Translations under genes and position numbers: made by a program
NCBI GenBank assembly: GCA_043228905.1
Contig: JBHGNT010000006.1
Coordinates: forward strand, 4,278,001-4,342,000
Origin: Azolla caroliniana
Taxonomy: Eukaryota; Plantae; Polypodiophyta
Direction: 5' to 3'
Length of the DNA stretch: 64,000 nucleotides
The notes under the pieces: generated by a model
Database searches by the model: none
Seen by the model: the letters and a program-made list of their open reading frames with translations, nothing else
Told to the model about the DNA's origin: nothing
Part shown: piece by piece, positions 287 to 64,000 of the stretch
How the letters are laid out: each line of letters opens with the position of its first letter
Numbering within the stretch: the first letter of the stretch is position 1

Positions 287-2860
287 TGTCTCTTCTCTCT
301 CTTAGAATTTAGTCTCGTCTTGGTTCCACTCTACTCTACTCGCCCGTGACAGTTTGTTCACCTTCCTCTTTCTTGCTACCATGTCCGACTCCATTGACAA
401 CTTAAACCAAGTAATGGCAGCCTTGCAACAACTTCAACTAAAAAATGAAATTCTTCAAGAATCATTACAAGAGCTTCAAACCGGCACATCCAAAAACCCA
501 CCACCCGCTGAGCCACACCCCCCAATGGCACCTAGCCCAACCACTTCCCCTTCCCCATCCATATGTCCTCGAACCTACCGTCAACCTACTGAACCAAATT
601 CAATAGCACGAGGGTGCATGTTTGCAACTTCATCAATCAAATTTGGCTTATCATTCGCTTATAACCCCCAACATTATGCAAGCGATTTTTTCGGGTCGGC
701 CTTGTCAGCACCCTTCTCTCCAGACCAACGCATGTGTGGTTTACACCATAGGCCGAGACCTCATCCCCGCTCTTAGAAAACTTCCCCACCTTCCTTGATG
801 AGCTTGAAGCCACATTCGGAGAGATAGTCTACACTTCAAAGTTTCATCAGATTGCATGCAATGTCAATTGGGATGACCAAGCCTTATGCAACGATTTTCG
901 TCAAGGCCTTTGAAATGATGTCAAAACTCTTCTCTTAAACTTTACAGAGCCCACATCGTTGTCTCAGGTAATCTCCCAAGCCGTTCAGTGTGATAATCAA
1001 CTTTTTGAGCTTTGTTAAGAGGAAAGTGGGAGTCGAGAGTTTCAATCTTCCTCCCGAAATGCACCAATTGCAAGGTCATACGTATCAGTTTCGCCAACCA
1101 TGCCAAATTTGCCATTCTCCAATGATACTCATACCTTGATGGAGGTTGACCCATACCCCTGTGGAGGTCAACCACACTCAGTTCCAACCATCAATTGATG
1201 CCCAACGATAACATCGATGTGACAATGGCCTCTGTCGCTCCCCGGCCATGCCATCTGCCACTGCCCGGTGTGGGGCCCTCAGCACCAATTGCACCATGAA
1301 CGTCTTGTGAGGGTTTCTTGACAACAGGAAAGCGACCAAGTCCAGCTATAGTAGGAGCCATGACGTTGGATGCTTTCTTTACTCAACTTCTCCATGCTCC
1401 TACAATTCAATTATGCCATCAAGAGGTTTTGCTTTGAAAGTAAGTCATTGTTTTGGGTCTACTTCAATACAATCCCATGCCTTGCTCGATTCATGTGCAT
1501 CTACTTGTTTTATCGATATCTTGTTTGTCCGAACACACAATATCCCCATTGTCCGTAAATCGACAACAACCCATTACAATTTGCCCCCCTCCCCCCCCCC
1601 CCCCCCCTTTATATAGTGATGGGAGAGACTCAATATCTCCTACTACATGCAAACATGATGTTTTTTCCCTAACACGAGTGTTCATGCACACTAGATGTCT
1701 TAGCCTTTTCTATCATACTTTTTCTTTTTAACTCAAGTGTTCATGCACACTAGATGTACATGAATAACTTTCTTTATCATGCTTTTTCTCTTAACTCAAG
1801 TTTTTATGTATGAATAACTTTTCTTTCATGTTTATCTAGAATATTTACGTGGGATCAACTTTTGTATAACTAGAATCTATAACTTTATACTCATAATGTG
1901 TTAGTATAATAGTAAGGCTTGGAATTGTTAACATGGAGGTATTGGGTTCAAATCTTGCCCTATGCTTGTAACTAGGGTTTTCCTATTCTTTGCAAACTAT
2001 GGGTTCCAACCTTCGTTCAACATTTCCATTCCTACGATTTCTGTCAATCCATCGGTAGAGACGAGTGCTCGCATCCAATATAAGGGGATCAGGTTGACCG
2101 TCATTGCTTGGCCACACCGACCTTTGTAGTCGGCGGCATGATTTGGCGCTACATCGCCACATCGCCATCACACGTCCCTACGCTAAATTGGACTACAAAA
2201 AACTTGGCCCCTTTTATATCATCGAGCGAATCAAACCAACTCCCCTTTCGGCTAACGATTCCCCCAACATTCAAGATTCACAATGTTTTCCAGGTTTCCC
2301 TCCTTGAACTCTACCATCCTTCTCGAATTTTGTGGAATTGTCGAGAAGGGAGAAGTATGAGGTTTGACCAAATCCTTGACTTACGCTTTCATCGTCGACA
2401 ATTTAAATATTTGGTGCTCAACAAAATGCTCCGAAGGCCATTTCAGTTTTTCAACAATGGTACCCACATAAGCCGATCGTAGGTCTTAGGAGGCAGCCTT
2501 AAATGGAGGAAAATGTCACATACCTATGCCACTGTGGAATGTAGGGGTTGAACCCATGACCTCTTGGTTTCCATTGGGTAATCTTATCAACTGAGCTACA
2601 TCCATTTGGGCATTATCATATAAAATTCACTTTGATGCATTGTAAGTTGAACACTAGAACTTTCTAGAAACTTCTAGAGAATGCATTCTCTAGAATATTC
2701 CTAGCTTGCATGCATACCTCCACCTTCTTGTATCAATACTCAAATGCACCTTGATTCTAATAAAGGTGAACAACACTAGTTACGGAAGCATAAGTTGAGT
2801 TCTTGTTCTCATTCTCTTGTCTCTTGTCTCTCTTAGTATTTAGTCTCGTCTTGATACCAT
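287..2860 (+). mobile_element. Degenerate Ty3/gypsy chromovirus-like LTR retrotransposon with internal deletion
   Basis: The 3' end of the 5' LTR (287-351, ending GTGACA) matches 2817-2860. Gag-like remnants lie at 354-1000 and a protease-like HALLDSCASTCFID at ~1480. Integrase C-terminal/chromodomain-like peptides (LGPFYIIERI, KIHNVFQVSLL, DQILDLRFHRRQFKYLV) lie at 2200-2420. A PPT AAATGGAGGAAAA is followed by the 3' LTR starting TGTCACA at 2514. RT/RNaseH are absent. Confidence 0.8.
1565..2100 (-). mobile_element. LTR fragment inserted in the gypsy element, reverse orientation
   Basis: Interrupts the host between protease and integrase. It has a minus-strand TATA (CTATATAAAGGGG) at ~1607-1617, short tandem repeats (AGTGTTCATGCACACTAGATGT twice) and a tRNA-like module at 1895-1965. 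Boundaries are approximate. Confidence 0.5.
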
Positions 2861-20500: not shown

Positions 20501-22439
20501 ATGTTGTTCAACTCTTGCTAGAGTTGAAGTTTGCGGGCGGTTGTGTTGGCGGCAAACATTTTCTTCAAGTTCTCCCACGCCTCTTTAGGCGTCTTGGCAT
20601 CTTGAATGTGGCTAAGCATGTGGTCATGGACACATGTTGCCAAGCATTACATTACTCGACTCGCCACTTGCTCCCATGTTGAGTAGTCGACGTTCTTTGG
20701 GTCGTGTTGATTTTCTTGTGCACCGTTCATGTAGCTCCAATACTCTTGGTGGACGAGGTATTGGTTCATCTTGTACTCCCAAGATGAATAATTGCTCCGG
20801 TCTAGCTTCTCACTAGGGAGTGAACTACCCATTTGTGTGTTCATGTTGATTGTAGTGTCTTCCGTTGTTGTGGTGTGGCTTAGCTAGAAGCGTGGCGTTG
20901 CGCAGACAAAAGATAAGGTGAAAGTGAGGAAGGAATCACTAAGATTATGGACAGAAGAGACGAAAGAGTAGAGATGAAGTGAATAGAGATCAACAGGATA
21001 TGGCAAGGTAGGATTTTTAAGAAATATGAGATATGGCAAGATAAGATATAAAATGATATTTCAAAACATGTAGGAAATTTATAATCATTATCATGAAAGA
21101 GTTACAAAATGGCTGCGAGCGTTGTTGGACCTTCGATTTTTGTCTCACAAAGTAACCACACTTCCCTTCCTTTATAGTAGACCATAATCTTCCCTTCAAA
21201 AATCTTTCGACGAGGATAAGACTCGAACCACCGCCCTTCAGTTGTGAGTTGAGGACCACAACCGCCAAGCTAGTTCTCCTCTAGTCTTTTAAAGATACCT
21301 CTCCCTCTTTGTCTATTATGATCTATTATAATTCTCTCTTGATCCAATATAATTAGATTCAATCTTATTTCTTGGTATCTTTGTGACTACATCCCCTTCT
21401 CTTTTTATAGCAAAGGGATAGTCTTGTATGTGGTCCATGTGGCGTATATGCAAATAGGTTCTTGCATGTGTGCTATATGGTGCACATGTAATACCAATGT
21501 TTACAATATTTAATGCTAAGTGATTGTGACTGAGGCTTTCAAAGTTGAGGTGGTGGGTTTGAGTCCTCTCTAGTGCATGTAATGCAATTGTTTTTCTTTT
21601 TATGGCCATTGTATATATTGTATACTATTTATATAGACTACATATTGTGAATGTTGGCTAATTGGTAACATGTGAGGCTCATAAGGCAGAGGTTGTTAGT
21701 TCAAGTCCTCTCTTGTCCTCATAATAGAGTGTTTTACTTTATTCACCTATATAATGTATAATATTATATAAAACACTATCAATATTCTTTTTATTTTAGT
21801 TATGTATTTATCTTATTGTAGACTTTTGATGTGAAGCTTTCATACTTCACGATATCATTTTACTTCACGTACACGTGCTACGTAGCGGCACTACGGTAGT
21901 GGGTAACCGGATTTTGTTGTTTGCGTCTCGAACACACAATCATGGAGAGTCGGGTGGGCTTAGTGGATGTGCTAAACCACACACTCTAATACCATGTTAA
22001 GAATTAGGTAATTAATTAAGGGTTAATTAGTACCTAATTATGTGATTAAGTTAAGCGAAAGATTATCTGATATGTGTGTGTGTGAGACGAAGACAGAGAA
22101 GAAGTTACACTTATGAACACAAAGACAAGATGGGGGATGATTAAGTAGAGTGTATATTAAAAAGCATCATAAAATACAAAAATACCCACAATGAGGTATA
22201 TATAGATCTCATGTGCAAGGGTGCACATGTGTGAGAAGAATATAGGTACTAAGGTGTAAGTCCTAAATTAAATTTACTTAGGAGTGGAGGATCTAGAATA
22301 TCCCACTTAAGTACCACTTAAGTACAAGGTCCTATTTAAGGATTTATAGTCAACACTTGGAACTAGATTCTATCTAGGAAACTACGAAGTTACATGGTTG
22401 ACTAAATAACTAAAACTAGTTGAGCTTTATATCTCAACA
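17578..22439 (-). mobile_element. Ty1/copia element B lacking RT/RNaseH, copy 1, nested in the LTR of A
   Basis: LTRs at 17578-18030 and 21995-22439. PBS TGGTATTAGAG is next to 21994 and PPT TGAGGGGGTG is at 18031-18040. Gag (EKLDRSNYSSW), protease (WFVDSS) and integrase remnants are present. The 5-bp TSD is decayed (GATTT/ACTTT). Confidence 0.9.
20866..21854 (-). mobile_element. Gypsy-type solo LTR with three tRNA-like modules
   Basis: Absent from the paralogous site at ~30658. Termini TGTTGTGG...TTCACGATA resemble the 60189 LTR reversed. The minus-strand TATA is at ~21402-21411. The decayed flanks read CCGT/TCAT. Confidence 0.8.
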
Positions 22440-22689: not shown

Positions 22690-23300
22690 AGGTAGTTGTA
22701 ACATGTCAAAACGTTTAACAATGCAATGGCGTCTTCCTTGGGCTTGGTATAATTCCTTAAATGTGCTAAAACAATATTCACACCCACCATCGCTCAACTA
22801 GGTATCAACGTGGATATTCTCATTGGAAGCACTCTACTTGATATGTATGCAACATGTGGAAGTTTATGAGATGCGTATAAAATCTTCGATGGTCTGATAT
22901 CCCTCAAGGTGGGTGCCGATCACATGGCTTTACATGAAGGCATGCTCATACATGTTGAAATCATGGATCGAGGCATACAAAAGGACCTCTATACCATAAT
23001 GTTTTGCTTGGGTTTTACGTTAAATGTGGAAAATAGAGGATGCTTGGTCAAGTCTATCAACGAAGGATTCATGGCTAGCCATTGTCTTACACAAGATGGG
23101 TTGGGGAAGGATGTCACTTCCTTTCCATCTATTTTGTATTTTGTAGCTGATAATTTTTTCAAAACTAATGGAAGGATATGTTTTCTTGAAAAAAAAAAAT
23201 TCACACCCACTATCGGTTTGTAGTTGTTGAATGGATCTTTGTATTATATTTTCTCCTAATCGGATGCCATTTTTGAATGCTCAAGTTGCTTGATATTTGG
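22690..23300 (+). pseudogene. PLS-class PPR gene fragment, copy 1
   Basis: Reads DILIGSTLLDMYATCGSL*DAYKIFDGL, ALHEGMLIHVEIMDRGIQKDLY and FYVKCGK. These are typical PLS PPR motifs, here with stops and frameshifts. Confidence 0.78.
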
Positions 23301-31837: not shown

Positions 31838-32124
31838 GCTTTGATGTGAACCTTTTCCCTATACGTGGGCAATTTTTACTCTAGTGCTGGCTAGAGGTTT
31901 TTTCCCCATGTTACCACATACATGACTCACTCATATGTGGTGGTACTTAGTACTTTAGGATATATATTTCAACTCTTACTAGTTTTGTATTATTCATCAA
32001 TAGAGAGAGCTATTCCAGGCATTGTCTTATTTGTGTGCTTCTTGTGTGTCTCTCACTCTTCCACACACACCCAACAAGCATAGTCTACAAGTAGTTGTAA
32101 CATGTCAAAATGTTTAAGAATGCT

Positions 32125-34862
32125 CTATATATATTGTGCTTGAGATAAAGAAATCATGCCTTGACTACAATTTCTTTTAACTTCAATTCCTAGAAAATAA
32201 GACATGGGACCTAGATCAATGATTGGAAATTTGGCCTTTAATTCTTATTTACATATAGCGAAATACGATAGAAAATTCGATACTAATGATAGGTCATCTA
32301 CATACACCCTTATTAATATGAAGTTAGATGCGTTCGTCTAAATATATAGATATATATATAATCGAGCATAACCAGTACTAAGAAGAAAAGAGTGTGAACA
32401 GTGATACCACACTCAAGGTGATTGGCGAAGTCCATAGATAGATTTCCAAAGTCGACATATGTGATTTGGGAATTGAGCACTTTTAAATTAAGGTGGTTGT
32501 TGCATGTAGACTTCTTCATCGAGTTCACCATGTAAAAGTGTTGTTTGAATATCCAAATGATGAAGTTCAAGGTTCAACGATGTGGCAAGTGCCACGAGCA
32601 TACGAAAAGACATTATCTTTACATTGAGAGTAAAAGACTCTTTGAAATCAATTCCGGGTACTTGCAAGAATCCTCATGCAATGACTTGAGCTTTATAACA
32701 TAGGCTTTCTGAGATATTCTTGTTTAACTCGGAGTACCCACTTACATGTGACTATATTCCGGTCCATGTCTCCTTTTTCCACAAAAATCTATGTCTCATT
32801 ATTTTGGAGAGCATTCATTTCATCTTCCATTGCTTGGCCCCACTTGTGTGCATCGTGTCCATTTAAAGTGTCTTCAACATTTAGGGGCTCATCACACTTG
32901 CATCTTTTTCAGGTACTCATCCAAAACATTCCTCTGTTTCTTATTAGGTTGTAAAGATTCATTCCTCGATGTAGTGCCCAAGTTCATTTTAGAGTATGTA
33001 TGAATGAAAATTGTAGAGTTGATGTGTGGTGGGGTGGAGGCTATAACTGTAGCGTAGGAGCGATTGTGATTTTCCTCTTTGGATGATGTGATGGGCAAGT
33101 GGCAGAAGGTATTTTCCACAAGATTGTGCTTTGGGATTTGGGTTTGGTAATTTACGTTGTCATGAAGATTTTCGGCAATAGTGTGAAAATTGTGAGGAAC
33201 ATACAAAATCGAATGTGGTTCTTCTCTCAAGATATGAAACAATAATAGTAAAGATACTATTTTAAATAAGTTTAATATCTTGCTACGAAAAGATGGACGT
33301 CTTGAAGAGCTTTCGAATGCCCTTTACTACATAAGAAATGGACAACTAAGTGTCAAGTTATGTGGGTATGAAGATTGCGAAGAAGAAGAGAAAAACAAAA
33401 TTGTGAGATATCCTACATAGACAGTACAAATAAGGATCCCAGAGTATATAAGCATACCAATATCTCTTCATAATATATCTATGTGTTTGGAGTATAGTAA
33501 AGGTGAGTTGTATGACTTGACGAATGGATGCAGCCAAGTCCATTGGTTTTGGACGGAACTGGACTGGTGACCAAACCGGTGGACGGCACCCGATGGGTCC
33601 GGATGGACTGGACGGGAAGATTTATCGCGATGCATGAGGTCTTGAAGTTTTCCGGTGTGAAATGAACAAAATAGTCTAGTTCTTTGGAGGTCAAGTGAAG
33701 GTGTAATATGCACTTAAACATTTGTAGAAAACAAGACTAAAAAGCCTAGTAAAAACAAATTTGTATATGAAAGGGTGCAAGTAAGAATTTGAACCTTGCA
33801 CTTCCAAGTTGAAAGTCAATAGAAAACAAGACTAAAAAGCCTAGTAAAAACAAATTTGTATATGAAAGGGTGCAAGTAAGAATTTGAACCTTGCACTTCC
33901 ATGTTGAAAGTCAATAGGCTTACCACTAAGCCAAATCATATCTACCAAAGTTTTACTTTTGATCATTTTACATATAAATTCTTATACATGAGTGCTTAGA
34001 TGATGACATGGCAAACATGCATTGCATGCATGTCTTGCACCCTTACATGCACCATATGCATGGGGGAATCTATAAAAGAGTGGAGGAATCAAGCAAGAAA
34101 AAACTAATGAAAATTTTGGGAAAAATAAGAAACTTGTTATCCTATTGTTGATGTATCTTGTCTCTCAAATCTAAAGTTAAGCGTTTAAATCTTTATCTCA
34201 ATCTCTCTTTCTCCATATCAATCTCTCTCAATCTATCGTAAATACTTTCTCGCTAAAGCTAGTACAAACTTCAAATCCTTCTGGTCCAGAACCCCTGTGG
34301 TTCCGCCTCACGATCCGCACAGTGACGGATTTTCACGACAACGTGGCAAGGTTTTGGGTGTCTTTTGGTTGTACATGTAAAGATTTTGTTAGATCATTAG
34401 TTGTATTTGTGATTGATGGTTGTACCTTTGTTTCATATTGGGTAGTTATGGTCGAGTCATCAAAAATTACGCTTTGATTGAAGATAAATTTTTTTGATGT
34501 CGTATCATAAAGTCGATAGGCATTATACCCGTGAACGTCACCATATCTGACGACGATAGTTTTGTTTGCCCAAACATCGGGTTTGTTTTTTTATTCTCAG
34601 GTACATATGTGTAATCCAGACAACCAAATATTCTAAGACCTTTTACACATGGTTTATGTCCATACCATAATTTGTATGGTATCATTAATCCTACTGAACG
34701 ATGACAGATTCGATTTTGTAGATAACATGTTGTACCAACAACTTCTTCCTAAAATTTTGAAGGTGGCTTATCAACTTAGAGCATGCTTCAAGCGGTGTTT
34801 AGAAGACTTCTATTTTTCCATTCTGCTACTCCATTTTTTCGTGGAGTATGAGGTGTCGAAAT
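32125..34862 (-). mobile_element. Highly decayed copia internal fragment (integrase-RT)
   Basis: IPYKLWYGHKPCVKGLRIFGCLDY at 34685-34600 and RT-like remnants at 32150-32900. Absent from the paralogous site at ~22726. Confidence 0.72.
33158..34340 (+). mobile_element. Gypsy-type solo LTR (1183 bp)
   Basis: Inverted termini TGTCATGAA...TTCACGACA and a 4-bp TSD ACGT. TATAAAAG at 34071. An internal ~95-bp tandem duplication (33725-33917) overlaps a tRNA-like module. Confidence 0.85.
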
Positions 34863-39600: not shown

Positions 39601-41042
39601 GTAGAGCTGCCTCACGTTCGGTTGCACCCTCAGTATCTTCTCCACCAGGACTGCAAATCTTTGGAAGCATCAGCTCTTCTTCTTTTCTTTTAAAAAACTA
39701 CTACTACTACTACTACTCATCGTCTACGAATTATTCTACAGTAGGAGAGGAAAGATTATAATGTACTAAGCTTGATATTGTGCAAGGAATTTCGAAATTT
39801 TGAGATTGTAGAGCATTGTTAAGTGATTGATTAGTTCCCAACTACTAACTTGACTTGTAAATGGATATGTGTGATTGAGATTGCAAACAGATCAAATAGT
39901 TATTTCTCTCACCAATATCTTCGAGGACTGATCCTACAAGCCGACGTTTAACGTTTAGTATTTATTAGTAATTGTCAAATCAAAGGACAAGAAAGAATTC
40001 GGCAAGCTCAATGCCTAATTCTTTCTAGGACAAATCTTTATATTATGTTTTTAGGACAAATCTTTAGAGCCATCTGCTCTTCTTCTTTTCTTTTAAAAAA
40101 CTACTACTACTACTACTAATCGTCTACTAGTTATTCTACAGTGGGAGAGGAATGATTATAATTGTACTAAGCCTGATATTGTGCAAGGAAATTCCATTTT
40201 ATCAATGTTTTGAGTTCCCAACTAATAACTTAATGTGGAATATCATTAATGTGGTACGCAATACGAATCACATGTTATGCTTAATATATAGGTACTGAGC
40301 TTATGGTGTTTTATAATGATTAGGCTTCGCAGCCCAAAGAAATTGCGGTGAGTTCTGGACTTTAATTTTTGTGAAGGAAAGAGCGTTGTATAACAAATCT
40401 GAATAGTACTAGCACTGGAGGACATATAGCCTTATTATGCACATAATATATGTATATGTGCACTTTTAAATTAAATGGTCCCCCCTATCACATTGTAAAT
40501 CTGGATAGGGGAGCATTAGCAGCAATGTGATAGGGGAGCATTAGCATCACTTTAATCCTGACATGGGAAGAAGGATGGGAGAATGATTAAAGCATGGCCA
40601 ATAATGAGTTTGGGCATTGATAATGATGGGATTGGTGGAGCAGAGAATCATAACCTTTGGCAATGAAGCCAGTGGCACCAGTTATGAAGATGTTCTTGTC
40701 ATGGAGGAAAGGGATGATGGCAAGGCCCGATGGAGAGTCCTCTCGCTCATACTGCGGCTCCTGAGTCTGCAAGGAGCTGCTGCATATGAATGTTGTTGTT
40801 GATGATGATGATGATGCGGTATAGTTGTTGCTTGTGTTAGGATTGGGAAGTACTAAACTCGGCCTAATTCCACCAATATTGGCAGCACCCAGTTTTCTTG
40901 CCAGTAATGGATCATGATGAAGATGATGACCATAGTTAATGCTGCAGGGCTTCATACATCTGGCTGCATGAATCAAAAAAGCATGGCTGCGTTGGGGATT
41001 AATACGCATTTGATATGGGGAGCTAATTAACTGTGAGCCCAT
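36671..41042 (-). CDS. FAR: Fatty acyl-CoA/ACP reductase, MS2/FAR2-like (copy B), 9 exons, 604 aa, C-terminal SKL
   Basis: Exons 41042-40655, 39650-39347, 39233-39133, 39038-38801, 38710-38549, 38453-38372, 38186-37923, 37296-37187 and 36836-36671. All are GT-AG and in phase, totalling 1815 nt. Motifs: TGATGFIAK (NAD(P)H binding), [18 protein letters not shown], catalytic [33 protein letters not shown], and a C-terminal male-sterility domain ending [11 protein letters not shown]. Confidence 0.93.
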
Positions 41043-41816
41043 GGCGTCCACGAAGAAATGAAGAATTATAATGGATGACTAGGCCAAATGGTCCAGAAGA
41101 AGAAAGAGAATTATTGATAACTTTCGTTTCCCTGTGCTTGTTTGGGAAAGGGGGGTGGGGTTCTCACATCCATTTATAAAGATGGGCGAAATGGATTGAA
41201 CGGTAGCGATGGATGATTTTGGATCATTAAATATTTATTCCCCAATGGGTTTGGGACAGATATTCGAATCTCTAATTGAGTTTTACAGGTTACTGGCTAA
41301 TATTAGTCAAATGTTATATAATTGTGCACTGTATTTCTCATCTACACGATGGTTTGAACCCATGATAATAGCGACATATATTAAGGTATTTATTACACAT
41401 GCTCCGATTAATCCTCCAAGTGACCTCTCTCAAATTGAGGCTCAATCAGAGCTCGTTGGAGAAAATAAAATGTATTTCTCTTAAATCACATGGGCCTCAA
41501 CCCATTATTTAAGAAGATAAAAGGTACCGATTAAGTCAACCCATGAGAAAGATATTAGTATTAATCATACAATGTTGAGTTAGTGGCAGGGAGGTATTTC
41601 ACAACTACCTACCTGTCATTTAAGTCAACCTATACTTTTAAGCACATATAAAGGGTATTGATTAAGTCAACCCATTATTGCAATCAATTTGTCTGATGTG
41701 TTGTGAAGCAAGAAGGACCAGGAGGACGATTTTGGCGGGCACACGAAAAGCCCTCATTTTATTATGTTATATACTTAAGTCATAAATAGTGAGAATTACC
41801 TTTTTGGCCTTTCTCA

Positions 41817-47800: not shown

Positions 47801-49334
47801 GAATAAGTCACTGCACAAGATCTCCTCCTTTAGCCTGCGTTTTGCGCAGCTTGCATCTTCTGCTTTGATTAGTAAGTAGAGCTTCCTCACGTTCGGTTGC
47901 ACCCGCAGTATTTTCTCCACCAGGACTATCAATTGCACAATACAGTATGCATTTTTATATGATATTAATTAGGACAAATCTTTGGAGCATCTGCTCTTTC
48001 TTTCTTCTGTTTTTTGAAACTACTACTACCCATCGTCTACTAGTTAGTTAGTCCACAATGGAGTGGAAGAGTTTATGTACAAAAACTTGATATTGTGCAA
48101 GGAAATTCGATTGTATCAATGTTTTGAGTTTGTAGAGAATTGTTAAGTGATTGATTAGTTCCCAACTAATAACTTGACTGGTAAATTGGATACGTATGAT
48201 GGAGATTGTAAAACAGATAAATAGCTATTTCTCAGGTCCAATATCTTCGAGGACTATAGAGTGCTAACATCCTAGAAGGTGAGGATTGCACAAACCTTTT
48301 TAATAATTACGTTTTAACATTTATTATATTCATTAGTAATTGTCAAATCGAAGAACAAGAAAGACTTAGTGCATGCTTTAGTGATTTATCTCATAATGTG
48401 GAATATTGTTAATGGTACGCAATTCTAATCACATGTTATGCTTAATATATATAGGTACTGACTGAGCTTATGGTGTCTTCTAATGATTAGGCTTCGCAAA
48501 CCCAAAGAAATTGTGGTGAGTTCTAGACTTTAATTTGTGAATGAAAGAGCGTTTATAACAAATCTGAATAACATCGGAGCACATAATAGCGTTACTCTGA
48601 AAATGGTCCCCGATCACATCGTAAATGTGGAGAGGAGGAGCATATGCCACAATTAGAAGGCTCTAGTATGAAGCATCACATTAATCCTGACATGGGAACG
48701 AGGACTGGAGAATCATTTTAAAGCATGGCCTATAACGACTTTGAGCATTGGTAATATGTGGGAGGGGATTAAAATGATGATGGGATTAGTGGAGCAAGTC
48801 AATCAAATTACCTTTGGCAACGAAGCCAGTGGCACCAGTTATGAGGATGTTCTTGTCATGGAGGAAAGGGATGATGGCAAGGCCCGATGGAGAGTGATCC
48901 GGCTCATAATGCAGGTCTTGAGGCGCCAAGAGTTGCTGCGTGCCACTAGGTCTCTGCAAGAAGGAGGGATCAAGGAGCACCTGAGTCTGCAAGGAGCTGC
49001 CGCATGATATTGATGATGATGATGATGATGATGCAGAGTTAGGATTGGGAAGTACTAAACTCCGCCTAATTCCACCAATGTTGGCAGCAGAGTTAGGATT
49101 TCTTGCCATTAATGGATGCTCCTCATGATGATGATGATGATGACTATCACCATTTTTGTCGCCTGCATGAATAATCAGTAATGCACCACCACCATAGTTA
49201 ATGCTGCAGGGCTTAATATATCTGGGTGCACGAATACTAGCATGATTACTTTGGGGATTGAGACGCATTGGATATGGGGATCTAATTAACTTCAGTGTGT
49301 AGTTGTAAGACTGTGAGCCCATGATGGCGTCCAT
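44884..49334 (-). pseudogene. FAR: FAR copy A, 9 exons, frameshifted in exon 3
   Basis: Exons 49334-48812, 47925-47622, 47513-47439, 47340-47103, 47013-46852, 46763-46682, 46474-46211, 45515-45406 and 45049-44884. Exon 3 is 75 nt against 101 nt in copy B, which gives a premature TAA at 47327-47325. All other exons are open, and the gene ends KGRGSKL*. Confidence 0.85.
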
Positions 49335-49844
49335 GAAGAAATGAGGAATTATTGATGACTAGGGAAATGGAGAAGAAGAAAGACAAGAGACACAGAGAGA
49401 AATGATTTGTTCCCTACGCTTATGTTGGGAAGGTTTGTAGGGTTCACAACCATTTATATAGACTTGGGGGGGGGGGGGGGGGGAAGGGTTTGAGCAATGA
49501 ATTGAAAGGTAGCGATGGATGATTGGGATCATTAAATATAGACCCAATTCAATGGGTTGTTGGACACAAATTCGAAACTCTAATTGAGTTTTGGTCATAT
49601 ATATATATACCCAATGGGTTGCTTGGGCCATATATCTATCGGTCGACACTCGGAACCTTGATGTATGTTGAGATTCCTAAATCAGGATGGTAATAGGTAC
49701 GCAGGAAATTTATGACATCCCAAAACGTGATTCAATTGGTCGGCCCCATTAAAATGGTTGAGTAGGAATTTATGATGTCCAAAGTGTGTGATTGAACGCG
49801 AGGATTCAATTGAGTAGTTATATTGATGAGATCATGTGCTTAAT

Positions 49845-53104: not shown

Positions 53105-53192
53105 TGTTAGAGACAAAGTCGTCTATGCGGAAGATCAAGAAGCATTCGAGTCTGTTCTGTACCTGCGTATGACAGTTTCTAGGTCGTTGCAC

Positions 53193-53223
<31 letters not shown>

Positions 53224-56200
53224 CACAAAAGACTCTATATTTCATAAAGCAACAAAATACAAACACCCCACCTTACAAAAAGGTTACAAGGTCAATATAT
53301 ATAGTGACCGACTTAGGGCAACTACCCTTTATGCTAATTACACAAATGGCCTAAAGGGATAGTGTGAATACGTCCATTATACACTTGTATTCGACACTCC
53401 CCCGTAATGGGCGTATACATGGGTTATCTAAGATTACAGGTATAAACTTAGGTTCTCGGACATATCAGTTTGTTCGAGTCGGCAGGGTCCGAAGGCGGAA
53501 GACCGAACTGGTCGGGTTGGAAGTGTCGAAGCCGATCATTAAGGAGCTGATGTCGGTTGTCGGGAACCATCCTGCGCTGTGTCCGACTCTAACCGGACTG
53601 GTTTGTCGTTACGCCCATCTGATGTCGAAGAGACCGAAAGCGGTCTGCCGAAAGACACTTGGTCATTCCATCTGCGACATTGTCGGTTGTGGATATTTTC
53701 TCTAGACCGATTTTCCCTGAAATGACGCAGTCCCGAACGAAGTGATATCGAACGTCGATATGTTTGGAGGCGTTGTGGTGAACCGGATTTTTTGACAAGG
53801 CAACAGCACCTTGACTGTCGCTGTAGACAACTGGAGCCGAGTCATGGTCGACTTGCCGAAACGTGTGCGCCAGCCGGCCGAGCCACAAAGCTTCTTTTGC
53901 AGCGTCGGACGCAGCTACATATTCTGCTTCAGTCGTTGAGGTCGTTGTGCACTCCTGAAGTTTCGACTTCCACGAAATTGCTCCATTGCCGAATTTGAAG
54001 CAGTATCCGGTTGTTGATTTCCGACTGTCTATACAGCCGGCGAAGTCCGAGTCGGTGTAACCGACTACGCCTGAGGTTCGGTTCGGACCGAAAAGAATGC
54101 CGTGGTCTTTTGTGCCAGCCAGATATCTGAACACATGCTTGACTGCGTTCCAATGCGATCAGCCAGGATTGTGCATAAATCTGCTAACGACTCCTACGGC
54201 ATGAGAAATATCAGGCCGTGTCGCGACCATCAGGTACATAAGGGAGCCGACTGCCGGTGCATACGGTACCGACTTCATATTTTCCCCCTCCGAACCGGAT
54301 GTCGGGCAGTCTCGCTGAGAGAGCCGAAGATTCATGGGGAGCGGGGTTGAAGCAGATTTGGCTGATTGCATGTTGAAGCGTTCCAAGACACGTCCGATAT
54401 AGTCGGTCTGAGACAAAAAGAGATGTCGTTTATCGCGATGCCGACTAATCTTCATGCCGAGTATGTGTCGTGCCGGACCGAGGTCCTTCATGGCAAACTT
54501 CAACCGCAGTTGCCGAATGAGATCGGCAAGTTCGCCCGCGTGGCGTCCAGAAATTAGCATGTCGTCCACGTAAATGATGAGGAAGATGGGTGATCCATCT
54601 TGAGCTGTGTTGGTGAAGAGACAATGGTCCTCATCGCTTTTTGAGAAGCCGATCGATTGGATGAAGTCGTCGAACTTCTTGTACCATTGTCGCGGTGCCT
54701 ATTTGAGGCCGTATAGACTCTTCCTGAGTCGGCAGACTAGATGTTCTTGGCCAGTCGCCACGAAGCCTTTTGGCTGCTCCATATAAATTTCCTCGTCAAG
54801 ATCACCATGGAGGAAGGCTGTTTTGACATCTAGCTGAATCAGCTCCAAGTTGTCGGCTGCCACTACGCCGAGTAGGAAACGAAGGGTTGTCATTTTCACC
54901 ACTGGTGAAAAAATCTCGTCGAAGTCGACGCCATATTCTTGTCGGAAGCCCTTCGCAACTAATCTGGCCTTGTACTTTGGGGTGGTCGAATCAGACGTCT
55001 CTTTTAGTCGATAAACCCACTTGCAAGGAAGAGCACATCGGTTCCTAGGTAATTCGACCAGATCCCAAGTCTTGTTTGCCCGGATGGAGTGCATTTCCGA
55101 CTCCATCGCCAGATGCCAGGTGGCTGAATCGACAGATGTCGATGCTTCTTCGTAAGACGTCGGTTCGCCGGCGTCGGTGAAGAAAATTCCAGGAGAATAC
55201 CTCTCCGGAGGTTGCGACAGTCTCTCGGATCGTCGAGGTATGATTGGATTGGTCGCATCGGGTATCGAGGTCGGATGGTCCGAAAGCGAATCATTCGGCT
55301 GTGCCGAGTCGGAGTTGTCCGAGTCGGGAGTGTAAGGTTCAGCTACCCGTGAAGCTGACCGTGTGTTAAGAGCGGGGCCTTCTTGAAGGGTCGGCACATC
55401 GGAAAATGTTACCCTTCGGACTTCGGTCGGTGTTTCGACTGATGGAGTCATAGCCGACTCGTTGAACACAACGTCCGAACTTCGAACGATTTGTCTGCGT
55501 TTGGGGTCCCAGAGTCGGTATCCCATTTCGCCGTCTGATCCATATCCAAGGAAAATGCATTTCCTGGACCGAGGTGCAAGTTTTCGGCGATCATCTTTCG
55601 GAATAAGGGCGTACGCCTCGCATCCGAAGATCCTCAGCTTGTCGTAATTCGGCTTACTGCCGATCCATAGTTCCTGAGGAATTTGAAGTCCTAGAGGTCT
55701 ACTTGGCGACATATTGATTATGTGTACTGCCGTGAGTAGAGCCTCTGCCCAGAAGCCATCCGACAGTCCGGAGTGTTGGAGCATGGAAACTATCCGTTCT
55801 TGGATTGTCCGATTCATTTGTTCTGCAATCCCATTTTGCTCCGGACTGTGTGGTGCCGTAAATTCACGTCGGATGCCGCGTTGTCGGCAGAATTTGACGA
55901 ATTCCTCGGATTTGAACTCTCCCCCATTGTCAGTCCGAAAGCATTTCAGTTTTCGGTCGGTTTGATTTTCTACCATAGCGAGCCAATCGGAGAAGATCGA
56001 GAAGACACGATCTTTGGTGCGAATTGGATAAGCCCACACCTTTCGAGTCGAATCGTCAATAAAACTGACGAAGTAAGAGGCACCGCCGAGAGACTGATGC
56101 GGCATTGGGCCACAGACGTCCGAGTGGACTAAATCGAGAGGTCTCGTTTCTCTTGGTGCTGATGTCGGGTGTGATGCGGCTGCTTGTTTGCCATACTGGC

Positions 56201-58406
56201 AATGCTCGCAGAATTGATGGTCGGAGAAGGAGAGTTTAGGGATGTATCCGGCTCTAGATAGGTGCGTAATGCCGGCCTTGCTGAGGTGTCCTAATCTTCT
56301 GTGCCATAGTGATGACACAGGAATATCCACCAAAAACAGGTTACCCTCTCTGAGCGTAACGTGTAACGGATACAGTGAGTGTATCTTGGGTCCTCTAGCA
56401 AGCAGGAGGTTCCCCCTGTGGAGTGTCCACCCTCCCGAAGAAAAACCGGCACGAATGCCGTCTTCATCTAGTTGTCCGACTGAGATCAATGGCCTTGAGA
56501 GCTCGGGTACATGTCGGACATTGTGAAGTACAAGTGTAGAGCCACCTGCAAGGTTGAGCTCTACTGTGCCGATTCCAATGATGTCGCAGTGTTGCGAGTT
56601 GCCGACTCGAACTGAGTCGGAGTGACGGATCGTATATTGCCGAAATTGGGATCGATGAGGAGTCACGTGAAATGACGCACCCGAATCTAAGAGCCATGTG
56701 CTCGATTCTTCAGTCGTGAGCAGAACTTCTGATCCGACTGGATTTTCGATTGATAGTATATTCGGGTCGTTTGGTAGCACATCAGCTGAGAAGCTGACGT
56801 AATTGATCTCCTCATGCCGGCCACTCTTCTTGTCTGATTTCTGAGACTTGTCGTTCTTGTTCTTGAGTGCGCGGCAGTCGGCTTTGATGTGTCCGGGTTT
56901 CTTGCAGTAGTTGCAGATTCGGTTATCCCGTGACTGGCTCCGTCTTCGCTGATTGTTCGGCGGTCGTGAGGAATCTCTTCCTCTTATGTTCGATCGGTCT
57001 GTCGAACCTTGTACTACATAAGCGTCGTCTGTTGAGTCTTTGGCGAAAGACTTTCTCCGAGCTGCTTCGGTCAGGATTGCGCTCGTGACTTCGGAGTATT
57101 TGACAGCCGTGGTTGACGCGTTGCACACGGTTGTGACGAAAGTTTCCCATGATGAGGGAAGGCTACTCATGAGTATCATTGCTCTGAGTTCATCCTCGAT
57201 TTCCGTCCCCTGAGATGAGATTTGGGAGCTTATGCTTTCGTACTCATTAAGGTGTGCTTGAACCGAATCGGATTCTTTCATCCGCAAGTTGTAGAGGCGC
57301 CGGATCAGAAACATCTTCGTTGCGGCGACCTTCTTTTCGTAAGTGTCCGACAGTGTTTTCCACAGTTCGAATGCTGTCGTACACGATTGCACCGTAAAAT
57401 ATACCGATTCCGATAGGTGCATCCGAATCGTGGCGCGGACGATTCTGTCCAGCTTCTGCCACTCAATTGGTTTGTATCCTTCTGGAGGTTCTTCATTTTC
57501 GATGGGATCGATTTGCCCCTTGACTATGAGATAGTCCTGCATTTGCTCCTTCCAGAAGTTAAAGTTCGATCCATCGAACTTTCGTAGACTCATTTCTGAC
57601 GAGCCGGATGTTGATGCCATCAAATTCGGTTTCGGTTGACGAAGCTCGGTTCGGAGTTGACTACGAACCTTGTTGGAGTGCAGCCGGTTGGCTCACCCGA
57701 TATCGTTCTAGTCGGATTTGAACCCGAGTCGGTTCGGCTTCGGATATATGTACTGTTGAACTTGCTCGAATTGACTCCGGTAACTTGAGGGACAGAACCG
57801 ACTGGTCTTCCCGAATGTTGCCGAGTCGGAGTGAGCCCGGTTCGCTTCGGATATGTATGCCGAATACCGATTATTGAAACCGATTGTCTGGACCGATTTT
57901 GCTTCGGGTGACTGCAGCGACGAGAGAGACGGATCCAACTGATCCTCCAGAATGTCGATCAGCCGGATGAAGCACGAATTGGGGTTGTTGTCTTGAGACC
58001 GATCTGCACCGAGTGGTTACAATGAGCGGCGAGCAGCGTTTGTTGACCTCTTCGGATGCCGTTTAACCGAGTGGAGCACGATCGTGTCAATGTTGCACAA
58101 GGGGATTTCACCTCGAGCGGTTACGATCACAAGGAACAGAGTACAACCGGCTGGCTTACTCCAAGCGAAGATGATCTAACGCGATGAGATGCAAGCCTCG
58201 TTTTTTTTTTCTTCTTCTCTCTTCTTCGAATGACGCAAGAAACCGAATGCTGTGCAGGCTGAGACGACGGCCGACAGCGGGTTGAAGGACCGAATGCTGC
58301 GCAGGCTCTGATACCAGATGTTAGAGACAAAGTCGTCTATGCGGAAGATCAAGAAGCATTCGAGTCTGTTCTGTACCTGCGTATGACAGTTTCTAGGTCG
58401 TTGCAC

Positions 58407-58439
<33 letters not shown>

Positions 58440-58612
58440 CACAAAAGACTCTATATTTCATAAAGCAACAAAATACAAACACCCCACCTTACAAAAAGGT
58501 TACAAGGTCAATATATATAGTGACCGACTTAGGGCAACTACCCTTTATGCTAATTACACAAATGGCCTAAAGGGATAGTGTGAATACGTCCATTATACAC
58601 TTGTATTCGACA
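53105..58612 (-). mobile_element. Full-length young Ty1/copia retrotransposon
   Basis: Near-identical LTRs at 53105-53396 and 58319-58612, 5-bp TSD CTACC, iMet PBS at 58305-58316 and a PPT next to 53397. Confidence 0.97.
53589..57623 (-). pseudogene. Copia gag-pol polyprotein, single frame with two nonsense codons
   Basis: CCHC knuckle (CNYCKKPGHIKADC), protease LLDSGAS, integrase (HSDVCGP, RTDNGGEF), RT YVDDML and RNaseH YTDSDFAG. In-frame TAG at 54699-54701 and TGA at 54159-54161. Confidence 0.93.
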
Positions 58613-60188
58613 CTACCTAGTGCCCCTCCGTATACTCATGCCTAGTACTTTTCCTATTTGATTCTCTCGAGGCGTGCACTCGCGTAAACCGGTGTTCCTA
58701 CGCGTTTCACCTTGTTTCTACCTATGGCCCGGAATCTTCACGACACCATGACAAGCTCGAGATTGCATCAAGGGATCTATTAAAGCCAACCCTCCTTGGG
58801 TTTTGGGCCTAATCAAAACTTCACACGCCACCTTGGCCACTACACGAGACCCATTTTTCCCCCCCCAAAGGAAGTTACGTACGAAGCTTTGAACTTTCAT
58901 GATTGCCGACCTAGAGAACAACTAAACCGATGCAATAAACCACATTGAGGCCAACAACACCAAGTTTATGATCACAACCTGGCCTGCAAAGGATAGGTGT
59001 TGAGAGTCCCAATATACTAGCTTACGCTTGATTGATAACAACAATGGAGATAACATCGCTTCATATGGTAAATCTATACCAACAAGACAACCTAAGTAAC
59101 GAATGGGCTCCCCATGATTAAGCCAATGAAATGCAGGGCATGGATACCATGGTGGATGTGGTTCATCACTTACCCAAAGGGCTACAAATTTATTCCAATT
59201 GAGAGAAGCTCCAGTAGCATCTGAAAATATCTACAAAGCATTATGTACCCGATCAAGATTAATAACATTTCCATGAATATAAAGAGCAGTGTCATCTGCA
59301 AACTTGGCATCAAGAACTGTCGTGTTTGCAATAGATAAGGCTATTGCTTGGGTGGCTGCGATCGAGGATCTGAGAAACGATGATAGAGCTTCCCCAAATA
59401 GAATGAAAAGAAAAGGTGTTAATGAACAACCTTGTCTGACAGACCTGGAAATTGGAAATAATTTACCGTAGCCTCCAGAAAACAAAACTGAGCTAGAAGC
59501 ATGTCTATATAATGCAGACACCTTTTAGCCATGCACGTGGAAGCCCTAATCTTAAGAGAACTGCATCCAAGAAGTCCCAATCTACTTTATCATATGCTTT
59601 CTCAAAATCTAATAATAGTATAACAAGGAACTATTTATGATGTTGAGCCAATGCGGTCATCTCCCAAAAAAGGAAGATATTGTCAAAAATACTTCTGCCT
59701 TCACGGATCCTAATTGTGTATCATGTATAATCGAGGGAAGCATCGGGCGCATTCTATTGGCTATAATCTTTGCTACTATTTTATAGACGGCGTTAAGCAA
59801 AGTTATTGGACACCATTTTGAAATTTCATCACATCGAGCATCTGATTTTGGAATCATGTAAATGATTCCTTCCGTCCATTCATCGGGCATATGCCATGTT
59901 GAGAATATTAAAATAACTACTCTAGTAAGAGTAGGTCCCGTCAAGTCCCAATAATGCAAATAAAATACCATACCTATGGCATCCTTCCCAGGACGCACAT
60001 ATTTTGCGAGGGATTTAGTTGTTGTCCAGACATCAGTGTCTGTAAATGGTTGAAGCAATTGAGAAGTCATTACATGAGTGACGTTTTGTTGTACTTTTTC
60101 TAGTACAAGTTGTCTCTTATTAATATCCTCCTCTGAGAAGGATTTAGCAGATAGAAACTGATGATAATATGTCGTAGTTATGTCCCGT

Positions 60189-63100
60189 TGTCGTGAAGAA
60201 TGTGCATCACGATATAAAAATGAGCTTAAATGTCGCATTTAATAATATTTGAGAGACTTGAACCCACATCCTTATATACGAAGTACAATGTACATACCAC
60301 TAGGCTACGCTATTTATTTGTAAAAGTGTCTAATAAATGTGCTTCATGATATAAGAATGAAGCTACATATTGTATTAAGTAAAATTGAGAGACTTGAACT
60401 CTCAACCTTGTATGCCAAACACAAAGTATACACCACTAAGCTAGGTTAGTTATTTTAAAATACATTTCATCATTATACTTATTGCATATCTATTCTCATA
60501 CATGGGAGCTCAAGCGAGCATGATGGCTACCATGCATCACGTGCAATACATGTGCGCCAAATGGCAATCATGCATTACATGTAACTCATGCATTGCATGC
60601 ATGCCATGCTCCCATACATTACCATCTGCATGGCAACAGTTATATAAAGAGGGGCAAGGAAAACAAGGGATCATCAAGAGAGAGTGAGAAAATAATACAA
60701 TCAAGTAGAGAAGACTAGCTCATTGTGTGGAGAACCTCTTGTTTCGAAGTTAAGGTCATGGGTTCAAATCAAGGGTCGGTAGAGAATGGGTTCAGTTTGC
60801 GATCAAGGATTGTAAAGTTGGTAAAATATTGTCTTTTTAATATACATCATGTTTATATCAGATACTCTTGATTCTTAAATCATTCTTTCTCTCTATCTTG
60901 CTTCTTGAATCATATATTGTCTCTATCTTCTATCCATTCTCATCTCTCTCTCTCTCACACATTACTCATAACTCTTCTTCTTGCTATTCTTAACCTTTCT
61001 AACATCACCATACAACCCTTATTAAAATTTAAGTTCCTTCAATTCCCCTTAACCTTAGTCTCTCCGACTTCGCCGCACAAACCACAACTACCCCGACACA
61101 TTTGGTGAACTCGACGTGAAGGCGGCAACAAGAAGAAATGGAGGAGCAAATGAGGCTTATCTATACGATGGTGGAACAAATGATGCGAGAGGAAGGGATG
61201 ACGGCAAGCATCGACAAAGCCGTCGACAATATTCTTACTCGAGTAGGAATCTTCAAAGGTATAAATTTAACAAAATTTCTGAAGATTTACAATGAAGAAA
61301 TGCTTAAACGTGGTGTCGACAAAGCTGCAAAAATTAATAGCTTTAGTCGAGTCGTTGCGATTGGGCTACAAGAGAGGATCCAAGAGCTCCAAAGGGAGAA
61401 TCAGACATGGACAACGTTCGAAAGACCATTACTCAATGAATACAACCTCAACGATATGTCGAAGATGACAAGGCGAGCTTTCATGGATTGGGTAGAGTCT
61501 AATAAACATTTAAGTGTTTTGGAAGTATTAAAAGAGTTTTCTGAAAGATTTGAGCAACTAAAGGCCGATAATAATAAAATAAAAAATACTTTCGAGTACT
61601 TTAAGTATTCTGGATTAATAGATAATGATGAAGAAATTCAGGATATGTTTGAAGAATTAAGTTTCGAAGATACAATAAGTCATTTGGAAGCAATGGAGGA
61701 CGAGGAAGAAATTCAAGTTCCTGTCCATTCTATCAAGATGTACGAGGTCATTGAAGAAGTTGCTCGAAAGGATCATGAGGCATATGTGATGACAAAGTAC
61801 AAGACAATGGAGAAGAAGGTTCATCCTATTGTTGCTCCACTTCCAAGGGATAGTGAAAGGGCAATCAAAGAAGCTGTTGCAAAGCCAATCATAAGAGACC
61901 CACGAAAGGTAGGACATGCGTTTACTCCGGAAACAATACAAGGGATGAAAATAGGAGGGGGTGACTTCCTATTACCCGCTGAAGAAAAGCATTTCAGGGA
62001 GATGTTAAAAAGGCATGGAAAGGCGTTTGCATTCCAACCGGAGGAAATAGGGTGTGTGGATCCAGAAATTGTGGAGCCCATGGTTATATTCACTATCCCT
62101 CATATTCCATGGAACTTTAAGCCAATACCCATGCCTAGGGCTAGAATCCCTCAACTATTAGAACTTTTGAAAGAAAAGATAAGGATGGGTATCTTGGAAC
62201 CATTGAACGCTCCTTACTCGAGTCGATGGTTCACTGTGTTAAAGAAAGATGGGAGACTCCGATTTATCCAAGATATGCAAAGGTTCTTAGTGGTCGACAA
62301 AGAAAATATGCACAGGCGAAAAGAGAGCTATGGGGGATAGTAACAGCAGTAAAGACAAACAGAGATTACTTAATTGGTGCTGAAGTAATAATAGAAACAG
62401 ATTATTTGCCTATTCTTGGTATCATAGCTAATTGTGATATTCCAGATGGTGTATCTATATTAGATGGTGTATCTATATTAGATCAGTCAACCCTGAAGTT
62501 CGACATATTTCTGGGAATAGAAATGGAGTAGCAGATATGTTATCAAGAGCAAGGTATGAGGAAGAGGAGATTCCAAACTCGGACGATGAGGACAAAGAAC
62601 AAACAATCCTTACCACAAGCATTACCCGGGAAGGAGGAATGCAGTTTCTAGAAGAGGAGTATGAAGAAGAATTCAAGGAAATAGGGAAATACCTACAAAC
62701 CTCTGACATGTACAAAAGTCGATCTAGAAAAGAGTTCGCACAGTTTCGCAAGAAAGGGCCCCATAATTTCTACCTGCATGAAGGATATCTATGGCGACAT
62801 CCGAAAACCAAGATTCGAAACCCGCAAAGAGTAATAGGTTCTGAAGGGCAAAGAAAGGAGATAATCAAAGAGCTGCATGACAAAGAATGGGCTGGTCATC
62901 GAGGAGTCGGGGCCACTTTCAGTAAGATTAAAGAACAGTTTTGGTGGCCTCGATACTATGAGCAAATAAAAAAGTATGTGGAAACTTGTCCCACCTGTCA
63001 ATATTATTCAAATGTAAAATTTTGTGATGAATTACACCCAACATACTCACCGGGGGTGCATTACAAGTGGATGATAGATTTGGTAACAATGCCACTTGGA

Positions 63101-64000
63101 GTAGGACAAAAGAGATACTTGGTTCTTACTAGAGGAGATCTAACAAATCAAGTGGAAGGTCGTTCATTGCGAACAAAAGGGACATTAGGAGTATGTCAAT
63201 TCATCTTGGAGGACATTGTTTGTAGATATGGATGTATCGGGAAGATAGTGGCAGATAGGGGAGAACTCAATTCTCCAGAAGCTCAAGATTTTTTCGACAA
63301 AATAGGAATTCAACTTTCTTTGACAACGGCGTACAATCCAAAAGCTAATTGAAAGGTAGAAAGGGGACATGGGCCAATAGTCAAAGCTTTGCCAAAGGCA
63401 TGTAGAGGACAGGTTAGTGATTGGCCAAAAACCTTACCCTATGCACTATGGGCTGATAGGACAACTCACAACATTGTTACTGGATATATGCCTACAGAAT
63501 TAATCAGAGGACAGAAGCCAATAATGCCAATTGAAGAAAAGATAACTACATGGGTTGTGTTGCCTTGGGAATCAGAAATGAGTAGGGAAGATTTACTTGC
63601 GGTTCGAATACGACTACTTCAATCAAGGACAGAAGACATAGAGAAAGCAGCTACTAGATTGAAAGAGGCAAGAATCAAGAATAAGGACAGATTTGACAAG
63701 CTGAAAAGAATACGACCAAGTAAGGTGCAAGAGGGAGATTGGGTATTAGTATATGATAGTAGCCTAGATAATCAATACAGTACTATTCGGAAGTTTGCAA
63801 AAAGATGGATTGGACCTTATGAAGTTAGGAAAATAACAGATAAAGCCACATATTTCCTCAATGAATTAGATGGGACAGAAATTTGTATCCCAATTGTAGG
63901 GAAAAGGATTAAAATATTTAAAATGAGGGAGTCATTAGAGCCCGAATTTTATGAAGAAGTAGAAGAACTAAAAGAATCGGAAGAAGTGTTGGATGAACTC
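60189..64000 (+). mobile_element. Ty3/gypsy non-chromovirus-like element, internally deleted, runs off the window
   Basis: The LTR runs TGTCGTGAAG...GACACA (60189-61100). The PBS TGGTGAACTCGACGTGAA resembles the complement of the plant tRNA-Trp 3' end. A gag/RT-start ORF lies at 61138-62340 (PYSSRWFTVLKKDGRLRFIQD), followed by an RNaseH piece and integrase (HHCC, IVADRGE) at 62537-63920. Confidence 0.9.
60383..60449 (-). other. tRNA-like module (best-preserved example) inside LTR
   Basis: A-box TAGCTTAGTGG, anticodon-like arm TTGTG-TTTGGCA-TACAA and perfect T-arm GAGAG-TTCAAGT-CTCTC. The acceptor stem is poor, so it is not called a functional tRNA. Confidence 0.7.

Follow-up and report, generated by a model that had tools for sequence, protein, structure and literature searches.

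tRNA-like A- and B-box modules in the LTRs of Phygy-type Gypsy retrotransposons as candidate docking sites for the Pol III machinery

The window, which is the whole 64,000-nucleotide stretch of Azolla caroliniana DNA that was analysed, ends in a Gypsy element whose 5′ long terminal repeat (LTR) contains three tRNA-like modules, each with an A box and a B box. The question raised by this locus is what sequences resembling an RNA polymerase III (Pol III) promoter do in the LTR of a retrotransposon with a presumed Pol II promoter of its own. The element and its left flank were composed of the following features, where L numbers here and below are handles of individual loci.

60185..60188: 4-bp left flank CCGT, the NCGN target motif of Phygy; the right target site duplication (TSD) lies past the window end
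60189..61098, plus strand: 5′ LTR (TGTC...GACA) of a degraded, putatively Phygy-type Gypsy element, with 76–80% identity to parts of the L001 LTR
60216..60220, minus strand: T5 run, candidate Pol III terminator, 33 nt past the B box of module 1
60243..60314, minus strand: module 1, antisense, in U3 (A box 60307–60297, B box 60264–60254)
60379..60450, minus strand: module 2, antisense, in U3 (A box 60443–60433, B box 60400–60390)
60460..60641, plus strand: CATG-rich upstream block with 11 CATG, 4 CATGCA, and 1 CACGTG
60641..60649, plus strand: TATA box, presumed from its position to be the Pol II promoter
60709..60785, plus strand: module 3, sense (A box 60716, B box 60761–60771), 75 nt past the TATA
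61103..61120, plus strand: primer-binding site (PBS), which we take to be of the tRNA-Trp type; the same PBS recurs past LTR ends across loci
61120..64000, plus strand: gag-pol remnant with the zinc-binding and core domains of integrase

The three modules lay where the original prediction had placed them, with A and B boxes at tRNA-like spacings of 43, 43, and 45 nt. The predicted LTR start also stood, whereas the end, given as 61100, was moved to 61098 because the termini of relatives read TGTC...GACA. Against a generic A- and B-box consensus, module 1 had 0 mismatches, module 2 had 1, and module 3 had 3, so that the sense module was weaker than the antisense pair. Such combinations were rare in shuffled sequence. 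Among 2,000 dinucleotide-shuffled versions of the LTR, two modules with at most 2 mismatches appeared at a frequency of 0.0005, and three modules with at most 3 mismatches never appeared; pairs of A and B boxes with at most 1 mismatch numbered 6 in the whole window, compared with a mean of 0.1 (maximum of 1) in 20 shuffles. Position 60726 in module 3 was G in most contigs of the family, which matches the A-box consensus. Modules 1 and 2 were the two halves of one 137-bp tandem duplication with 76% identity, which rules out their independent capture. A T4 run followed the B box of module 2 after 5 nt, and the nearest T4 to module 3 was 62 nt past its B box. In run X20, labelled ‘RNA? (probably DNA)’, 32 contigs fell on modules 1 and 2, a count that carries no information on expression. 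The element was inserted beside the RT remnant (59657–60238) of a LINE, and a remnant of the same LINE hosts a young Copia element (53105–58617), with LTRs 99% identical over 299 bp and a 997-aa ORF broken by stops.

Modules were also found in three other LTRs of the window.

1677..1970, minus strand: part of an LTR belonging to the L019/L024 family, in which a single antisense module lies (A 1902, B 1945 in plus-strand coordinates)
20866..21854, minus strand: solo LTR of the L017/L032 family, flanked by CCGT/TCAT
33158..34340, plus strand: solo LTR of the putative Phygy-type lineage with a perfect TSD, ACGT/ACGT

The solo LTR at 20866–21854 had been predicted to repeat the layout of two antisense modules, a TATA, and one sense module. 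This layout was recovered, with one antisense module formed by an A box at 21655 and a B box at 21698, a second with a B box at 21556 and a damaged A box, a TATA near 21409, and a sense module (A 21272, B 21229). The LTR was missing from a duplicate site near 30659, which identifies it as an insertion, and was hosted by the first of two Copia remnants of about 90% identity on the minus strand (15662–22724 and 25484–32123). In the solo LTR at 33158–34340, a single antisense module (A 33933, B 33890) preceded a TATA by 138 nt. Module halves containing the B box were duplicated locally at 33725–33917 (95–98 bp) and at L017:3300–3390 (44 bp). At 24350 and 41360 (both minus strand), in duplicated intron-like sequence, a B-box-like motif was accompanied by a weak A box, with a score near background. 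Tandemly duplicated first exons at 40587–41078 and 48786–49358, each ending in an NAD(P)-binding motif, presumably resemble plant fatty acyl-CoA reductases.

By the PBS, the NCGN flanks, and the domain order, the window element and its relatives appear to be Phygy-type Ty3/gypsy elements. The window gag-pol remnant had two large internal deletions relative to L001, in which the 710-aa and 1158-aa ORFs (gag and pol) with RT, RNase H, and integrase were intact. In Pfam comparisons, the pol ORFs of L001 and L032 had the order RT–RNase H–integrase, and no chromodomain was found in them. An ORF longer than 1,000 aa was present in 13 of the 22 module-bearing loci. The NCGN target was seen at 60185 and at both ends of the 33158–34340 LTR, and in decayed form around the solo LTR at 20866–21854; CG occupied positions 2–3 in 8 of 14 candidate 3′ ends of loci, some of which are probably false ends. 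The named integrase relatives came from Riccia and Ceratopteris, so that the host is likely a plant without seeds. The window family was highly repeated, with 1,038–1,716 contigs per run matching the LTR region in four sequencing runs from three organisms. A search of viral contigs for relatives of the element gave none, and the assembled-genome contigs gave 1 short relative without an LTR, which was not included in the tree. The integrase of this plant Gypsy also occurred on L081, a 2.6-kb contig inside a Streptomyces assembly that is likely a contamination. The features of the carrier were well matched to the accessible part of the REXdb description of Phygy, namely RT–RH–INT without a chromodomain, a tRNA-Trp PBS (the dominant type, 81%, in the supplement), a 4-bp NCGN target, and an interior filled by the coding region (Neumann et al. 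2019, PMC6317226).

For comparison across the lineage, 41 modules were collected, of which 5 were dropped: 4 lay outside the LTRs of the lineage, and L067:4594, though within an LTR, had a weak B box. Dereplication of the remaining 36 at 80% identity left 30. The tRNA fold was not conserved in them. ARAGORN called 0 tRNAs in the window and none in 22/22 module-bearing loci. Comparison with a covariance model was also negative, with 14.8–16.6 bits for modules 1 and 2 against the Rfam tRNA cut-off of 29, and with no match in the whole window or in 10 module-bearing loci. Over the 30 modules, 48.3% of cloverleaf cells were paired compared with 49.6% after shuffling (acceptor 40.5%, D 50%, anticodon 41%, and T 65% of cells), and RNAalifold over the modules gave no consensus fold. 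The acceptor, T, best anticodon, and D arms did not exceed partner-swap nulls (p = 0.46–0.98), and a shifted anticodon register gave p = 0.09. The anticodon-like arms described as clear in the two antisense modules did pair at 5/5 positions (with G–T), but only one base off the register set by the conserved AGGT loop, and modules 1 and 2 folded no better than their own shuffles (z of +0.88 and −0.82). Identity as a tRNA gene was therefore rejected, and the suggested tRNA-like small RNA found no support as a cloverleaf, with no covariation in any arm across the 30 modules.

The promoter-like parts of the modules were kept instead. The distance between the A and B boxes was 43 or 44 nt in 29/30 modules. 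In what we take to be tRNA numbering, G46 was invariant (30/30) and A44 and G45 were conserved in at least 90%, and none of these three positions was in the search motif. In 12 pairwise LTR alignments between relatives, which are not independent and whose reference was picked by its boxes, 280/315 box positions (89%) were identical, compared with 344/463 (74%) between the boxes, 1605/2220 (72%) in the adjacent flanks, and 2361/3051 (77%) elsewhere. Part of this box conservation stems from the search itself, which found the modules through their boxes. Within the window family, variants with a share of at least 12% affected 3/44 box, 17/64 interior, and 13/153 flank positions; the boxes varied less than the interior (p = 0.011) and were no better conserved than the flanks (p = 1.0). 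The expectation that the boxes would outlast the flanking LTR sequence was thus borne out between families and not within this one. On the strand of the module, TTTT was found within 40 nt past the B box in 19/25 U3 modules and AAAA in 3/25, against a background of 21–32% of windows, and in only 1/5 sense modules downstream of the TATA. CAA motifs upstream of the modules (5/30 against a background of 21%) were not enriched.

The modules combine an A box and a B box at tRNA spacing, AT-rich upstream sequence, and a downstream T-run, which are the features of a type 2 Pol III promoter as listed in the accessible part of PMC13578239. They occur across the lineage, though optionally, and what is conserved in them is the promoter and not the tRNA. 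In anatomy they correspond to a minimal type 2 Pol III unit that has lost its tRNA fold. Because the boxes and their spacing were kept and the tRNA shape was not, docking sites for the Pol III machinery are the likely reading. Binding of TFIIIC and TFIIIB to the modules is probable on this evidence. The recruitment of TFIIIC and Pol III envisaged in the original prediction fits the box sequence, the 43–44-nt spacing, and the T-runs, which were kept where other LTR sequence could not be aligned.

Selection on a short RNA transcribed from the modules as Pol III genes, such as a T-arm hairpin acting as a decoy or silencing regulator in the manner of a foamy virus, is unlikely. The complete units of boxes and T-run in the 19 U3 modules are what such genes would show, and the only two variable B-box sites of module 2 were the T-stem pair 52–62, which switched together between G–C and A–T across runs (77/82%, 67/59%, and 41/36%); however, cross-mapping from module 1 or the presence of two subfamily haplotypes may account for this linkage. 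In 4/12 family groups, an extended hairpin around the B box exceeded chimeras in stability by 5.7–6.4 kcal/mol, and the inner hairpin of module 1 paired in all 4 stem variants. Across families, however, the chimera test was not significant (7/12, p = 0.20), the anticodon region beat chimeras in 2/12, no arm rose above the partner-swap nulls, and the interior was the most variable part of the modules.

The lineage sample consisted of the best 80 of 237 metagenome loci; since these are repeats assembled from short reads, some may be chimeras. LTR modules were present in 21 of these 80 loci, absent from 38, and unscorable in 21. Weight-matrix matches numbered 25 in 51,871 bases of 3′ LTR and 0 in 272,817 internal bases, with a background of 2 matches at a score of at least 20 in 1.41 Mb of shuffles. 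With a more sensitive model, L044 became a degenerate module and L003 a B-box-only site, and 32/36 module-less LTR stretches remained under the 95th percentile of shuffles; module-bearing LTRs scored 30–46 (inflated by training), which made the score distribution bimodal. B-box-only sites with the AGGT extension and no A box, located in L003 (3′ LTR +581 and +733), L044 (+418), and L078 (+521), resemble extra-TFIIIC sites.

On the integrase tree, with 23 rows positive and 32 negative, module presence switched 9 times, a count that leaves out the unscorable rows and L003, L021, L026, L065, and L076. The close sisters L011 and L014 had 94% integrase identity and only 80 nt of U3 in common, and differed in module state; the close sisters L078 and L033 also differed in module presence, although the integrase identities computed for L078 were out of register and were disregarded. 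The distant families L028 and L053, with 67% integrase identity, yet shared 73% identity over 274 nt of U3 with the module region. Since close sisters differ and distant families share the module region, U3 is exchanged as a block. Among family representatives, module-bearing U3s were richer in CATG (p = 0.00015, 11 versus 19 families) and poorer in CpG (0.63 versus 0.98 observed/expected, p = 0.003), in families that are not fully independent.

The CATG-rich block before the TATA of the window LTR was also present in other module-bearing families. A CATGCA/TGCATG-rich block bearing CACGTG preceded the TATA in the window (60460–60641), L039, L078, L050, L017, L032, and L052. These motifs resemble, as we assume, the RY and G-box motifs of B3/ABA-regulated promoters, which hints at activation linked to spores or desiccation. 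LTRs mostly without a module bore short tandem repeats, in AAACCCTAAT-like (presumably telo-box-like), TTTCGGA-like, and CCGGTT-like arrays (L018, L048, L063; L033, L050, L080; L012), which may be alternative promoter designs.

That the modules are optional and travel with U3 (9 state changes over 55 labelled rows) would also be expected of old tRNA or SINE relics, carried as neutral passengers of the CATG/TATA promoter block and conserved only through the search method, and the equal variability of boxes and flanks within the window family points the same way. A SINE-sized tRNA-like repeat exists outside these LTRs (window 2598, 10360, and L046:3080), and SINE insertion is proposed as the source of such LTR sequences in the accessible part of Kojima 2024 (PMC10886601). 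Such a neutral origin of the pattern is nevertheless rather improbable, given the bimodal scores of module-bearing and module-less LTRs, the spacing that stayed fixed despite a diverging interior, and the tandem duplication of the module, which arose separately in two families. SINE hallmarks were scarce among the 30 modules: a poly(A) tail followed 1/30 and 10-nt flanking direct repeats 0/30, and flanking repeats of 7 and 8 nt numbered 9 and 4 against 5.7 and 2.2 expected. The modules accordingly did not show the TSD and the A-rich or simple-repeat tail of independent SINE insertions, both of which old insertions could have lost.

The repeat itself, of about 100 bp and with both boxes, was found in three unrelated contexts (window 2530–2610, minus strand; 10300–10375, minus strand; L046:3066–3160), and may represent a short SINE from which the LTR modules could have arisen. 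Its copy at 2530 lay directly past the integrase end of a degraded chromovirus-like element. A module as a family trait of the chromovirus-like LTR was not established, as the repeat at 2598 recurs in unrelated contexts and is not in the left end of that element.

Orientation was biased. The 30 modules comprised 21 antisense and 4 sense modules in U3 and 5 sense modules downstream of the TATA. Most module-bearing families had a single antisense U3 module, some had a sense one, two had sense modules only, and many relatives had none. The layout of two antisense modules, a TATA, and one sense module, described as conserved, was therefore confirmed for the window family and the solo-LTR family and for no others. 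In LTRs with a recognisable TATA, the closest antisense module began 138–287 nt away from it, and the sense module lay 75–166 nt past it, in the transcribed part. In total, 26/30 modules pointed away from the TATA, and 4/30, together with the dropped L067:4594, pointed towards it. In the window family and the solo-LTR family, the TATA has modules on either side that are directed away from it, so that their predicted TFIIIB sides would face it.

A Cassandra-like role, in which the modules make genomic RNA, was rejected. The modules are mostly antisense (21/30), a T4 follows the sense B box in the window LTR after 62 nt, and the 5.6-kb interior of L001 contains 19 T4 runs, so they cannot make genomic RNA.

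The antisense bias suggested one further use. Pairing of U3 with primer tRNA has precedents in HIV-1 U3 and in the bipartite primer site of Ty3, and with 21/25 U3 modules antisense, the RNA of the 3′ U3 would be complementary to the D and T loops of a tRNA and could pair with the primer for strand transfer. The 3′ end of the primer deduced from the PBS was matched at only 5.4/15 positions on average, however, and the two families with sense modules only stand outside such a scheme. The modules might otherwise attract elements that seek Pol III, but the family alignments held no nested element just upstream of the modules, and the flanks of the element itself follow NCGN. Both ideas are very improbable.

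If the Pol III machinery does bind, its benefit might consist of repression or a road-block, by damping the LTR promoter, stopping read-through from the host, or ending RNA in the 3′ LTR. The sense module lies in the transcribed part, and both tRNA-gene-mediated silencing and Pol II road-blocks are known in yeast, where tRNA genes can repress neighbouring Pol II promoters or stop the elongation of Pol II, according to the accessible part of PMC4228148. Strong blocks would harm replication because genomic RNA has to cross U3 and R, and the module-bearing families are highly repeated in several organisms. A gain of this kind is quite improbable.

The preferred reading is that the boxes in the LTRs of these autonomous Phygy-type elements are TFIIIC/TFIIIB-binding DNA sites that would act as a chromatin barrier for the element's own Pol II promoter, which is quite possible but tentative. 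The module would descend from a captured tRNA gene or tRNA-derived SINE and would have been retained by selection at each transposition cycle. The Pol III machinery would dock on the LTR modules and shield or tune the promoter of the element, and short Pol III transcripts of 75–105 nt would be by-products. The least certain step is the benefit, by which nucleosomes and silencing marks would be kept off the CATG-rich, CpG-poor promoter after insertion. Against this reading speak the dispensability of the modules (38/59 scorable loci were initially classed as module-less), the modules directed towards the TATA, the lack of CAA enrichment, the scarcity of T-runs after the downstream sense modules, the flank-like variability of the boxes within the window family, and the repressive effects of yeast tRNA genes on Pol II. 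The accessible part of PMC4228148 describes yeast Pol III complexes with barrier, insulator, and nucleosome effects that do not depend on the product. A broader form of the proposal, in which autonomous plant retrotransposons carry an exchangeable tDNA-type insulator in U3 that in some families brackets the Pol II promoter, is doubtful though conceivable.

If correct, these LTRs would contain an element-borne anti-silencing device based on TFIIIC, and the first tDNA-type barriers in plants, in many copies in fern or moss genomes; in the accessible text of a review on chromatin barriers in plants, the TFIIIC/tDNA barriers cited are those of yeast and animals only (PMC9540200). Active sites in repeated LTR copies would scatter many TFIIIC sites through genomes. 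The sister families with and without the cassette offer a natural comparison for TFIIIC barriers in plants and for their use by retrotransposons against silencing.

Pol III promoters in LTRs are known from non-autonomous TRIMs, in which they are thought to drive the RNA of the element. In Cassandra, the analogue named in the original prediction, the sequence is derived from 5S rRNA and drives the transcript of a non-autonomous element, which is not the case here (PMC10886601, accessible part). Helenus (TRIMp3), whose LTRs contain tRNA-like sequence, is closer. In the accessible part of Kojima 2024 (PMC10886601), Helenus elements are non-autonomous, 311–1263 bp long, and proposed to be transcribed by Pol III, with one family known in plants (Selaginella, with a 120-bp LTR), and their autonomous partners must use Pol II promoters. 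As in Helenus, the tRNA-like LTR sequence was conserved around boxes A and B and is unlikely to be a working tRNA. Unlike Helenus, the carriers here encode gag-pol, have a TATA, and contain 1–3 modules, mostly antisense; they are neither short and non-autonomous nor dependent on the modules as genomic-RNA promoters. Because an RNA-driving role is excluded in carriers that code for gag-pol, the modules must serve another purpose or none. The same source states that tRNA-like pieces occur in ‘not a few’ of the LTRs in Repbase, with an analysis confined to TRIMs, so LTR modules may already be catalogued without comment.

In the literature covered by the search, which most subscription papers and the Repbase entries lie beyond, no description of A/B-box modules was found for Phygy or for the LTRs of other autonomous plant elements. 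The accessible part of PMC6317226 gives Phygy as Physcomitrella-specific and makes no mention of tRNA-like boxes in its LTRs, whereas the elements here carry them. The theme of a Pol III promoter in an LTR is known; what is new is its occurrence, as predicted promoters, in autonomous plant elements. Pol III boxes have been described in BLV (PMC12498455, accessible part). Bovine foamy virus, likewise an autonomous LTR retroelement, has a short Pol III unit in its U3, apart from the Pol II promoter; in the accessible account, the function of its cassette resides in a structured RNA that can be complemented in trans, whereas the modules here have tRNA-gene spacing and no conserved fold (PMC7693620). 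The proposed action of TFIIIC-bound DNA without a useful RNA is shared with the ‘extra-transcriptional’ tDNA and ETC sites of yeast, which the accessible part of PMC4228148 presents as fixed host loci, whereas here the putative site is carried by a mobile element, in a plant.
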